Assembly (NCBI RefSeq): GCF_001677475.2 | Contig: NZ_CP012498.1 | Length of the DNA: 64,000 nt | Reading direction: 5' to 3' (one strand) | Origin: Escherichia coli | GTDB lineage: Bacteria; Pseudomonadota; Gammaproteobacteria; Enterobacterales; Enterobacteriaceae | Part shown: piece after piece, positions 21,374 to 41,267 of the stretch | Position numbering within the stretch: position 1 is the stretch's first letter | Layout of the letters: every line of letters begins with the position of its first letter | Translations under genes and position numbers: made by a program | Notes under the pieces: generated by a model | What the model was told of the DNA's origin: nothing | What the model saw: only the letters and a program-made list of their open reading frames with translations | Database searches by the model: none

Positions 21374-21784
21374 TGAAATTAAGATATTTAAAATAATCAG
21401 CAAAAGACTTTATCTCAAAATATTTATCGGTAATAATACATGTAATCATGTATATAAATCTTGAGTTCTGATTTTTATAATTTTTTATTCTGCAATTGTG
21501 TCGGGGGATCGATACTGGTTATACCCCCTCTTTTTCTGGTAAGGAAAATCAGAGTTGCGCTATGTGGATTTTGAACGTATTTCAGGTGCATAAATCAGTC
21601 AGAATATACACAGCGCATTTTTCAGCTTTCAATTGTCACTTCCATCCATCGATAGATAGATCATTAGCGTCCTGGCATTACCCCAAGTTCCGGATCCGCG
21701 GATCATTCGCTGCCGTCCGCCGGCCCGCTTTCACATGATGTGGTGTCCAGCGCCGTTTGATCTGCGCCCCAAATCTTGGACATC

Positions 21785-22564
21785 CTATGAAAAATGTTTA
21801 AGTCGATATTGAACCGGACTCATGCCATCGAGTTTCTCTTTAATGCGATGGTGATTGTAGTATTCAATGTAATCAATTATATCTTGCTTTAGATGATGTA
21901 ACTTATTGTATTTATTTAGATAGTAACATTCTGATTTTAAAGTACTAAAAAAGCTTTCCATTGCTGCATTATATAAGCAGTTACCACGTCGGGACATGCT
22001 TTGTGTTATGCCATTATCACTCAACCAACGTTGCCAACGAGGCATCTGATATTGCCACCCCTGATCACTATGCAACAAGGGCTTATCGTCTTTATTGAGT
22101 TGTTCTACCGCATCTAATAGCATGCTCTTTACCATTGATGCTAATGGGCGCTCAGTAAGGTTATATGAGACTATTTCTCCATTATACAGGTCCATGATTG
22201 GTGATAAATAGAGCTTCCTGCCATCGACCTTAAACTCTGTGACATCTGTTACCCACTTTTGATTTGGGCGGTCAGCATAAAATTGTCTCTTCAGTAAATT
22301 ATTACAAGTTCGCCCCTGTACTCCACGATAGGCACGGTACTTCTTGCGCCTGATAAGTGAGCTGATACCCAGTTCCTTCATTAACTTTCTGATGGTTTTA
22401 CCATTAAGTAAAATGCCCTCGTTACGGCAGGCAAGTCTGATGCGTCGATAACCATAACGCCCTTTATGCTGATGGTATATTCTCAATATTACTTGTTTAA
22501 CAAGTTGATATGGATCTGGCGCATTAAGGCGTTTCACGTGATAGTAAAATGTACTACGTGGCAA
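21785..22564 (-). CDS. IS3-family transposase OrfB
   Basis: 259 aa, identical to ORF 40461..41240; DDE core (WVTDVTEF, HSDQGWQY). Confidence 0.85.
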   Translation of the reverse strand: MPRSTFYYHVKRLNAPDPYQLVKQVILRIYHQHKGRYGYRRIRLACRNEGILLNGKTIRKLMKELGISSLIRRKKYRAYRGVQGRTCNNLLKRQFYADRPNQKWVTDVTEFKVDGRKLYLSPIMDLYNGEIVSYNLTERPLASMVKSMLLDAVEQLNKDDKPLLHSDQGWQYQMPRWQRWLSDNGITQSMSRRGNCLYNAAMESFFSTLKSECYYLNKYNKLHHLKQDIIDYIEYYNHHRIKEKLDGMSPVQYRLKHFS

Positions 22565-22623
22565 ATCCGCGATAACCAGTAATTGTGATAATGGATGACA
22601 TTGCCTTAACTCATTAATAATGA

Positions 22624-23124
22624 TTACTTTTTCTTTTGTTCCAATCGTAATTTTTCCTGAGCTAAGGCTTTCAGCTTTTTTAGATAAGCGTTCTCAACTC
22701 TCAGCAACTCAAGTTCTTCCCGTTCACTGATTGTCAGTTGTGTCGAACGACTTCGTTGATAAACAGCAGGAGTTTTCGGCCTCAAATCTTCCTTTTGTCC
22801 CTTCATCGAAAAATCAACCTCACTGTATTTTTTAATCCATTTGGATATGGTGTTAAAAGCAGGGATCCCATACTTCACTGCAGCTTCCCTTATAGAAAGA
22901 GAATTATCAATAACATCTCTGACCACATTCAATCTGAAGTTATCGTCATAACGTCTTTTTTGCCCAGTCAGTGTTTTTAATCCGTGCTTACGGTAAACAT
23001 AAGCCCATTTCCTTACCGTGCTGGGGTCAATATTGTACATTTTTCCAACAGACTTCAAACTCAGCTCACCTTCCAGGTATTTTTCGGATACTTCCCTTTT
23101 GAATTCTAATGAAAATTTGCTCAT
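22624..23124 (-). CDS. IS3-family transposase OrfA
   Basis: 166 aa, identical to ORF 39901..40401. Confidence 0.85.
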   Translation of the reverse strand: MSKFSLEFKREVSEKYLEGELSLKSVGKMYNIDPSTVRKWAYVYRKHGLKTLTGQKRRYDDNFRLNVVRDVIDNSLSIREAAVKYGIPAFNTISKWIKKYSEVDFSMKGQKEDLRPKTPAVYQRSRSTQLTISEREELELLRVENAYLKKLKALAQEKLRLEQKKK

Positions 23125-23503
23125 ACGCTCCTCAGTTACAGATCTGGTGTCTAACTATTGGGGCGCACTTCAGTTTAACTGACACTGTATGTTGTGTTTC
23201 TTCCCGTGTTCGCGAGCCAGTCATCAGCGGCAGAAAAGATCACTTCGCTTATTCACTGATCGTGATTCACTTCCGGAAAATCATGAATCCGATAAAAATC
23301 GGATCATGGAAAAACAGTTATCCTGTAATTTAGAATTGTTATTACATTGCTTGTTATTATTTTTATGATCACTTTTTAGATCAGTTATTGATGAAAGTAT
23401 TAATAATAGTCAGATAATAATATTCCGTTGCCGGAGGCATGTTATAGCGTAATACTAATGTATACTTAATTGTGTACAGAGAGTATGTAAGATGAGGTGT
23501 ATT

Positions 23504-23722
23504 ATGAAGCAGCGCATTACAGTCACAGTCGACAGTGACAGCTATCAGTTGCTCAAAGCATATGGTGTCAATATCTCCGGTCTGGTAAGCACCACCATGC
23601 AGAATGAAGCCCGTCGTCTGCGTGCCGAACGCTGGAAAGCAGAAAATCAGGAAGGGATGGCTGAGGTCGCCCGGTTTATTGAAATGAACGGCTCTTTTGC
23701 CGACGAGAACAGGGACTGGTGA
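23504..23722 (+). CDS. ccdA: CcdA antitoxin
   Basis: [20 protein letters not shown]... matches recalled F-plasmid CcdA over its full 72 aa. Confidence 0.9.
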
Positions 23723-39840: not shown

Positions 39841-39900
39841 CGCAGCCCCATTTGAAGTGCGCCCCAATAGTTAGACACCAGATCTGTAACTGAGGAGCGT

Positions 39901-40401
39901 ATGAGCAAATTTTCATTAGAATTCAAAAGGGAAGTATCCGAAAAATACCTGGAAGGTGAGCTGAGTTTGAAGTCTGTTGGAAAAATGTACAATATTGACC
40001 CCAGCACGGTAAGGAAATGGGCTTATGTTTACCGTAAGCACGGATTAAAAACACTGACTGGGCAAAAAAGACGTTATGACGATAACTTCAGATTGAATGT
40101 GGTCAGAGATGTTATTGATAATTCTCTTTCTATAAGGGAAGCTGCAGTGAAGTATGGGATCCCTGCTTTTAACACCATATCCAAATGGATTAAAAAATAC
40201 AGTGAGGTTGATTTTTCGATGAAGGGACAAAAGGAAGATTTGAGGCCGAAAACTCCTGCTGTTTATCAACGAAGTCGTTCGACACAACTGACAATCAGTG
40301 AACGGGAAGAACTTGAGTTGCTGAGAGTTGAGAACGCTTATCTAAAAAAGCTGAAAGCCTTAGCTCAGGAAAAATTACGATTGGAACAAAAGAAAAAGTA
40401 A
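39901..40401 (+). CDS. IS3-family transposase OrfA
   Basis: identical to ORF 22624..23124. Confidence 0.85.
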   Translation: MSKFSLEFKREVSEKYLEGELSLKSVGKMYNIDPSTVRKWAYVYRKHGLKTLTGQKRRYDDNFRLNVVRDVIDNSLSIREAAVKYGIPAFNTISKWIKKYSEVDFSMKGQKEDLRPKTPAVYQRSRSTQLTISEREELELLRVENAYLKKLKALAQEKLRLEQKKK

Positions 40402-40460
40402 TCATTATTAATGAGTTAAGGCAATGTCATCCATTATCACAATTACTGGTTATCGCGGAT

Positions 40461-41240
40461 TTGCCACGTAGTACATTTTACTATCACGTGAAACGCCTTA
40501 ATGCGCCAGATCCATATCAACTTGTTAAACAAGTAATATTGAGAATATACCATCAGCATAAAGGGCGTTATGGTTATCGACGCATCAGACTTGCCTGCCG
40601 TAACGAGGGCATTTTACTTAATGGTAAAACCATCAGAAAGTTAATGAAGGAACTGGGTATCAGCTCACTTATCAGGCGCAAGAAGTACCGTGCCTATCGT
40701 GGAGTACAGGGGCGAACTTGTAATAATTTACTGAAGAGACAATTTTATGCTGACCGCCCAAATCAAAAGTGGGTAACAGATGTCACAGAGTTTAAGGTCG
40801 ATGGCAGGAAGCTCTATTTATCACCAATCATGGACCTGTATAATGGAGAAATAGTCTCATATAACCTTACTGAGCGCCCATTAGCATCAATGGTAAAGAG
40901 CATGCTATTAGATGCGGTAGAACAACTCAATAAAGACGATAAGCCCTTGTTGCATAGTGATCAGGGGTGGCAATATCAGATGCCTCGTTGGCAACGTTGG
41001 TTGAGTGATAATGGCATAACACAAAGCATGTCCCGACGTGGTAACTGCTTATATAATGCAGCAATGGAAAGCTTTTTTAGTACTTTAAAATCAGAATGTT
41101 ACTATCTAAATAAATACAATAAGTTACATCATCTAAAGCAAGATATAATTGATTACATTGAATACTACAATCACCATCGCATTAAAGAGAAACTCGATGG
41201 CATGAGTCCGGTTCAATATCGACTTAAACATTTTTCATAG
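40461..41240 (+). CDS. IS3-family transposase OrfB
   Basis: identical to ORF 21785..22564. Confidence 0.85.
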   Translation: MPRSTFYYHVKRLNAPDPYQLVKQVILRIYHQHKGRYGYRRIRLACRNEGILLNGKTIRKLMKELGISSLIRRKKYRAYRGVQGRTCNNLLKRQFYADRPNQKWVTDVTEFKVDGRKLYLSPIMDLYNGEIVSYNLTERPLASMVKSMLLDAVEQLNKDDKPLLHSDQGWQYQMPRWQRWLSDNGITQSMSRRGNCLYNAAMESFFSTLKSECYYLNKYNKLHHLKQDIIDYIEYYNHHRIKEKLDGMSPVQYRLKHFS

Positions 41241-41267
41241 GATGTCCAAGATTTGGGGCGCAGATCA

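Follow-up and report, generated by a model that had tools for sequence, protein, structure and literature searches.

Does a block of plasmid maintenance genes that lies between two inverted copies of the same insertion sequence (IS) occur in both orientations, and how did the two copies come to bracket it? This question is raised by a stretch of 64,000 nucleotides from Escherichia coli (contig NZ_CP012498.1 of assembly GCF_001677475.2; hereafter the window, meaning the whole stretch that was analysed). Two copies of an IS3-family element lie here on either side of ccdAB, partition genes and a second toxin-antitoxin pair. The 1,415-bp element is labelled IS-Y and its copies are referred to as copy A and copy B; a different IS3-family element in the same region is labelled IS-X. 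Comparison with related plasmids indicates that the block is found both ways round.

Two inverted IS-Y copies and the orientation of the DNA between them

A repeat search of positions 20000-43000 recovered an inverted pair at 21757-23172 and 39853-41268. Its arms are 1,416 nt long, fully complementary (100%) and separated by 16,680 nt. The element proper is 1,415 bp long, copy B (39853-41267, plus strand) being the exact reverse complement of copy A (21758-23172, minus strand). The initial annotation had described two identical IS3-family copies in inverted orientation with identical OrfA and OrfB proteins, and the nucleotide alignment it proposed as a check bears this out, with 100% identity over 1,415 bp.

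In copy B, OrfA spans 39901-40401 and carries in its own frame the slippery heptamer A-AAA-AAG (40344-40350), from which the -1 frame is open as far as 41240, giving an OrfAB fusion of 446 residues. Both copies have an intact OrfA, the slippery site and an open fusion, and near-identical copies carry the label 'programmed frameshift' in RefSeq. OrfB matched the NCBIfam profile NF033516 (transpos_IS3, a DDE/rve transposase) with 311 bits against a cut-off of 160, over profile positions 113-369, and positions 2-87 of the same profile were matched by OrfA. The terminal inverted repeats are imperfect (TGAAGTGCGCCCCAA on the left and TGATCTGCGCCCCAA on the right, read inward), and the ends of the element, TGAAGTGCGCCCCAA... 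and ...TTGGGGCGCAGATCA, fit the 5'-TG...CA-3' of the IS3 family. Only two pairs of IS-Y ends (four ends) are present in the window. IS3-family elements move by a copy-out/paste-in pathway, from which a short target duplication is expected. With its transposase profile, frameshift site, TG...CA ends and the short duplication around copy A (see below), IS-Y is, judged by its sequence, a complete IS3-family insertion sequence, intact and probably active. As to a more specific name, a protein-cluster look-up and the annotations of its copies give only 'IS3 family transposase', and literature searches on the plasmid or on IS-Y found nothing specific.

An exact look-up of the OrfA protein led to JAQMUJ010000003.1 (GCA_036681075.1), a contig of 184,824 bp in which OrfA occurs twice. 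The first locus follows the window from 28553 to 41268 and then continues into the reverse complement of 23172-12624, so that the order is IS-X, IS-Y, the MarR-family gene and ehxDBAC. At the second locus the reverse complement of 30434-21757 is followed by 39853-46810, giving the order ParM, ParA, resD, ccdB, ccdA, IS-Y, an IS1414-like remnant and a HEPN-like gene. Over both loci the window is matched with 99.3-100% identity. The junctions read CCCCATT-IS-AACGGCGC and CAGTTAAAC-IS-ATCCAGTC; these are the four flanks of the window with the inner pair exchanged, and the contig is therefore the predicted inversion isomer. Hence the earlier suggestion that identical inverted copies allow inversion, for which comparison with related plasmids had been named as a check, is matched by a plasmid in which the segment is flipped. 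On these alignments, the segment at 23173-39852 (16,680 bp) exists in both orientations, with its flanks exchanged exactly at IS-Y. Two draft assemblies contribute one linkage each: DADULF010000073.1 (GCA_017818535.1) links MarR to IS-X across IS-Y, which is the flipped type, and DAOFPQ010000045.1 (GCA_029619825.1) links IS-X to the HEPN-like gene across IS-Y, which is the window type.

Alternatively, one of the records might be misassembled and only one arrangement might exist in nature. It is well known that DNA lying between identical inverted repeats is prone to being assembled the wrong way round, and IS-Y is where the majority of the other draft contigs of this lineage break off, as expected of a repeated element. 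However, long reads have no difficulty in crossing a repeat of 1.4 kb, JAQMUJ010000003.1, at 184.8 kb, belongs to an assembly that has a chromosome contig of 5.0 Mb, and the independent contigs of the two other assemblies show one linkage each. Moreover, an extra IS and point changes set the two plasmids apart as separate lineages. In detail, the sister plasmid has one substitution in one of its IS-Y copies, lacks the IS at 30435-31663, is changed at 32057-32175 and has an intact HEPN-like gene. By this comparison the two are close relatives and not copies of one another, and we regard an artefact as very improbable.

Flanks and insertion sites of the two copies

The flanks of copy A read GTT-IS-GTT, which agrees with the perfect 3-bp direct repeat reported in the initial annotation. 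Such a match has on its own a chance of 1/64. The flanks of copy A were joined with a single GTT and searched in PLSDB, where plasmid pCFSAN004179G (NZ_CP012501.1) gives one unbroken match over the joined flanks (99.0%). In a local alignment, window 9618-21758 and 23173-27882 fall on positions 22126-34251 and 34248-38958 of locus L002 from this plasmid, and the 4-base overlap of the two alignments at the empty site contains the duplicated GTT. The left target duplication (21755-21757) is thus present there as a single copy, and the right one (23173-23175) was placed by comparison of the flanks with the same plasmid. The same empty site is found in three draft contigs (our loci L046, L047 and L054). 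On its outer side, copy A is flanked by a MarR-family regulator (21113-21373, plus strand; named from the annotation of relatives), which lies downstream of ehxCABD. PLSDB and 5,426 complete E. coli genomes, collections that do not include the source record of the window, were searched for the junctions of copy A (IS-Y with the MarR and ccdA flanks) without a match. Together the GTT duplication and the uninterrupted empty site show that copy A entered between the MarR-family gene and ccdA by a clean simple insertion. This insertion is recent and made the 3-bp duplication.

These observations bear on whether the two IS-Y copies and their interior are a composite transposon, the maintenance genes having been mobilised together as its cargo. 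Inverted IS copies do bracket a gene block here, as in Tn5 or Tn10. Yet the outer flanks, GTT beside copy A and ATC beside copy B, do not match, and copy A has a duplication and an empty site of its own. In pCFSAN004179G, which is without copy A, the interior is collinear with the exterior. Furthermore, both outer ends of such a transposon would be right ends of IS-Y, and the block was found nowhere else, the junctions of copy A being absent from the records just described. A composite transposon is barely credible on this evidence.

The flanks of copy B, in turn, read ATT-IS-ATC and do not match, as had been noticed before. To its left lies IS-X (38231-39852, plus strand), whose left end is intact at 38231 and whose right end is cut by copy B; measured against the full-length copy of pEB1 (locus L006, 4966-6625) it stops at 39852, approximately 25 bp before the right tip. 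A full IS3-family transposase profile is covered by 38571-39815. The terminal repeats of IS-X are two-tiered, with an outer repeat TGTCAACGCCAA and an inner repeat TGGGGCTGCGGAC some 27 bp inside it (window 38231-38282, and the pEB1 copy). In pEB1, IS-X is inserted in umuC with a CCTT duplication. The same location in the window was considered and rejected, as the pEB1 target is uninterrupted at 28121-28124 and IS-X lies elsewhere.

To the right of copy B, positions 41268-41407 (plus strand) hold the last 140 bp of an IS1414-like element of the IS256 family, comprising its C-terminal 34 codons and its end. The initial annotation had set copy B between an IS3-family end and a Tn3-type transposase remnant. 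The former is the end of IS-X, whereas the latter is rejected: the DNA is 90% identical to the last 140 bp of the IS1414-like elements in pCFSAN004179G, and the encoded peptide shares 29 of 34 residues with positions 369-402 of a 402-residue transposase annotated 'IS256-like element IS1414 family'. This direct comparison with the annotated transposase was used because the IS256 profile does not reach the last 34 residues.

Two other contigs, L028 and L036, show the IS1414-like remnant running about 50 bp further to the left into unrelated DNA, at the point where the window has IS-Y. Copy B therefore interrupts the remnant. The two flanks of copy B, with or without IS-Y between them, are contiguous in no record of PLSDB or of the 5,426 complete genomes, so that one original flank has been replaced. 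A flank rearrangement at copy B, as suggested earlier, is thus supported by a truncated IS-X joined to an internal point of an IS1414-like remnant, two sequences never contiguous elsewhere. A pattern search of the window for the reciprocal junction, with the missing 25-bp tip of IS-X next to an IS end, found none. Likewise, BLAST of the upstream sequence of L028 and L036 against the window did not find the missing upstream part of the remnant.

Copy B would therefore stand at a junction left by an earlier rearrangement in which one original flank was lost, likely in one of two ways. The first would be recombination between an IS-Y copy in the tip of IS-X and another in the IS1414-like remnant; the second would be an IS-adjacent deletion. 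The mismatch cannot stem from inversion between copies A and B, since this would also have destroyed the duplication of copy A, which is kept. As to the order of events, we infer that copy B was in place before copy A.

Mechanism and direction of the flip

Recombination between inverted copies of E. coli IS elements turns round the DNA between them while one copy stays at either end, and because such an inversion makes no new junction it is invisible to short reads (PMC5009759). The arrangement described here is consistent with this process. A large IncF-type enterohaemolysin virulence plasmid carries IS-Y twice in inverted orientation, and homologous recombination by the host, acting across 1.4 kb of perfect inverted homology, would flip the 16.7-kb segment of maintenance genes. 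No new short junction would be created and no gene would be broken. Homologous (RecA-type) recombination between the inverted copies appears to be the most parsimonious mechanism of the flip. From ehx up to and including ParR, the window and pCFSAN004179G run in the same order; this collinearity, together with the retained duplication of copy A, indicates that the orientation of the window is parental and that of the sister plasmid derived. With the crossover inside IS-Y, no gene, promoter or local junction is changed by the flip, and a regulatory role is not expected.

As a whole, we consider this account, comprising an active IS-Y, the insertion of copy A, an older junction at copy B, a flip by homologous recombination and a parental window, to be very likely. 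Several points weigh against it. Both short contigs that cross IS-Y come from short-read draft assemblies, in which the path through the repeat may be arbitrary, and the two orientations are known from different assemblies. In addition, sequence alone cannot separate recombination from inversion driven by the transposase, and the data separate neither of the two routes to the unmatched flanks of copy B.

Alternatively, the flipped form could stem directly from an ancestor in which copy B was the sole IS-Y, through replicative transposition within the molecule that targeted the GTT site; the window form would then be secondary. A replicative event of this kind would duplicate IS-Y in inverted orientation and invert the DNA between the copies. 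The flipped contig carries the target triplet (AAC in the orientation of the IS) on the side of the right inverted repeat of one copy and of the left inverted repeat of the other, as this explanation predicts, and the strong target preference of IS-Y makes repeated hits at one site conceivable. However, IS3-family elements are known to proceed by a figure-of-eight and a circle intermediate to simple insertion and are not known to use Shapiro-type replicative events, and replicative transposition is unlikely for a family that inserts via a circular intermediate. Moreover, to arrive at the window form, one inversion by recombination would still be needed, or else the same base would have to be hit independently a second time. 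We therefore give this route little credence and favour recombination between the two existing copies.

Inversion driven by IS elements, as seen here, is a well-documented and already known kind of plasmid plasticity. For the enterohaemolysin/heat-stable-enterotoxin IncF lineage to which this plasmid belongs, it means that the plasmids exist as orientation isomers, that their short-read assemblies break at IS-Y and that, within the mosaic of the plasmid, the site of an older recombination junction is marked by copy B. Awareness of this is of use in comparing or typing such plasmids and in judging assemblies; it leaves the understanding of IS biology or of plasmid maintenance unchanged.

Contents of the segment, further IS-Y sites and known systems

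The genes named in the initial annotation within the bracketed segment (ccdAB, resD, ParA-like, ParMR, a umuC remnant and a toxin-antitoxin pair) are correct by NCBIfam and Pfam matches, although many IS remnants and a nested inverted pair of IS-X were omitted. Closest to copy A, the ccdA-ccdB toxin-antitoxin pair (23492-24029, plus strand) scores 163 bits for CcdA and 214 bits for CcdB against NCBIfam. It is followed by a resD-like tyrosine recombinase gene (24030-24835, plus strand), which is split near 24220 by a 1-bp deletion in a run of C relative to the 268-residue gene of pCFSAN004179G. Two open reading frames (ORFs) of 88 and 198 residues result, with Phage_integrase/Xer-type matches, and the same split is seen in JAQMUJ010000003.1. 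Next come a ParA-family ATPase (24949-25659, plus strand; profile match and the ParA-family annotation of relatives) and ParM-like and ParR-like (Plasmid_stab_B) partition genes (26399-27857, plus strand). The latter rest on matches to Pfam StbA_N/ParM_N and Plasmid_stab_B on the near-identical contig and on the annotation of relatives. Remnants of umuC occupy 27859-28731 on the minus strand, with DUF4113 and IMS_C parts whose Pfam labels were mapped from JAQMUJ010000003.1, and with homology to umuC of pEB1. Further along, an RHH (CopG/RelB-like) antitoxin and a ParE/RelE-family toxin lie at 37106-37665 (plus strand; Pfam RHH_1 and ParE_toxin on the near-identical contig, and the annotation of AP025742).

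The IS content of the segment is high in fragments. A 5' fragment of an IS1414-like (IS256-family) element at 29845-30246 (plus strand) matches the N-terminus of the NCBIfam IS256 profile and is 98% identical to the copy in pCFSAN004179G. Beyond it, at 30435-31663 (plus strand), the repeat search and a profile match revealed another complete IS3-family IS of 1,229 bp with 38-nt inverted repeats. It is lacking in the near-identical JAQMUJ010000003.1, which has an empty site there with a 3-bp overlap. The IS is a recent insertion specific to the lineage of the window. By the same two means a partial IS-X (the OrfB part) was found at 32429-33331 (minus strand), among further IS3-family fragments, and an IS2 remnant at 35614-36513 was found by profile match. 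The partial IS-X at 32429-33331 and the near-complete one at 38959-39849 form a nested inverted pair, 96-98% identical with a 12-bp indel. This pair could invert the 5.6 kb between its arms. In the two relatives aligned, AP025742 and JAQMUJ010000003.1, the DNA is collinear with the window across it.

Three smaller features were also observed. Positions 32057-32175, 119 bp within an IS3-family transposase fragment, are present in the window and absent from JAQMUJ010000003.1. A direct repeat of 50 nt (36790-36839 and 38124-38173, 84% identical) has a GC-rich, hairpin-like core, GCGGCCCTGACGGCCCGC. Finally, the HEPN-like gene adjoining copy B (41553-42592) is frameshifted in the window, leaving an ORF of 276 residues, and encodes 346 residues in many draft assemblies as well as in JAQMUJ010000003.1; public assemblies contain both forms.

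Target sites of IS-Y were compared between the window (21738-21757 and 23173-23190) and loci L003 (NZ_CP012501.1), L012, L014 and L016. All five are independent sites bearing duplications, and they share a palindrome-like sequence, GTCCAC...(IS)...GTGGACAC(C), whose right arm lies 8-9 bp past the end of the IS. The target is often found 20-27 bp upstream of the start of an IS66-family tnpA, and the motif is similar to the inner part of the terminal repeats of IS-Y itself. Target duplications range from 3 to 5 bp across sites, with 3 bp at copy A, 4-5 bp at copies elsewhere and none at copy B, from whose right flank the motif is missing. In related plasmids IS-Y is also found at a third site, beside an IS66-family element. 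A comparison of NZ_AP025742.1 with NZ_CP012501.1 reveals that in the former the flank of this third site abuts the opposite end of IS-Y, without a duplication, which points to further IS-associated rearrangements in this plasmid family.

A more far-reaching reading, in two parts, would hold that IS-Y homes sequence-specifically to the GTCCAC...GTGGACAC motif, often in an IS66-family leader, and that the maintenance block flips frequently and reversibly in culture, perhaps affecting the behaviour of the plasmid. Were this so, the flip could act, for example, by changing which way the partition and toxin-antitoxin genes point with respect to replication or transfer. We think the combination unlikely.

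Among known elements, IS-Y shares with IS150, IS911, IS2 and IS3 of its family the TG...CA ends, imperfect inverted repeats, two overlapping ORFs, the A-AAA-AAG site for -1 frameshifting, the DDE (rve) transposase and a target duplication of 3-5 bp. It differs from the named members in its marked preference for the palindrome-like target, often just upstream of IS66-family tnpA. With Tn5 and Tn10 the locus has in common the architecture of IS, cargo and inverted IS; unlike these transposons, however, it has no shared outer duplication, one of its arms is demonstrably an independent insertion and there is no evidence of movement as a unit. Programmed invertible segments, such as the Hin, Gin and Fim switches and the shufflons, likewise consist of DNA found in two orientations. 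In contrast to them, the borders here are without dedicated invertase sites, the crossover falls inside 1.4-kb repeats and no promoter or coding junction changes; the tyrosine recombinase gene near the border of the segment is frameshifted and unrelated to the borders. The closest likeness is to IS-mediated inversion in E. coli (PMC5009759), with which the locus shares identical inverted copies, both orientations, one copy kept at either end and the absence of a new short junction. Nothing essential separates the two, except that the DNA inverted here is a block of plasmid maintenance genes and that the case is made by comparison and not by experiment.

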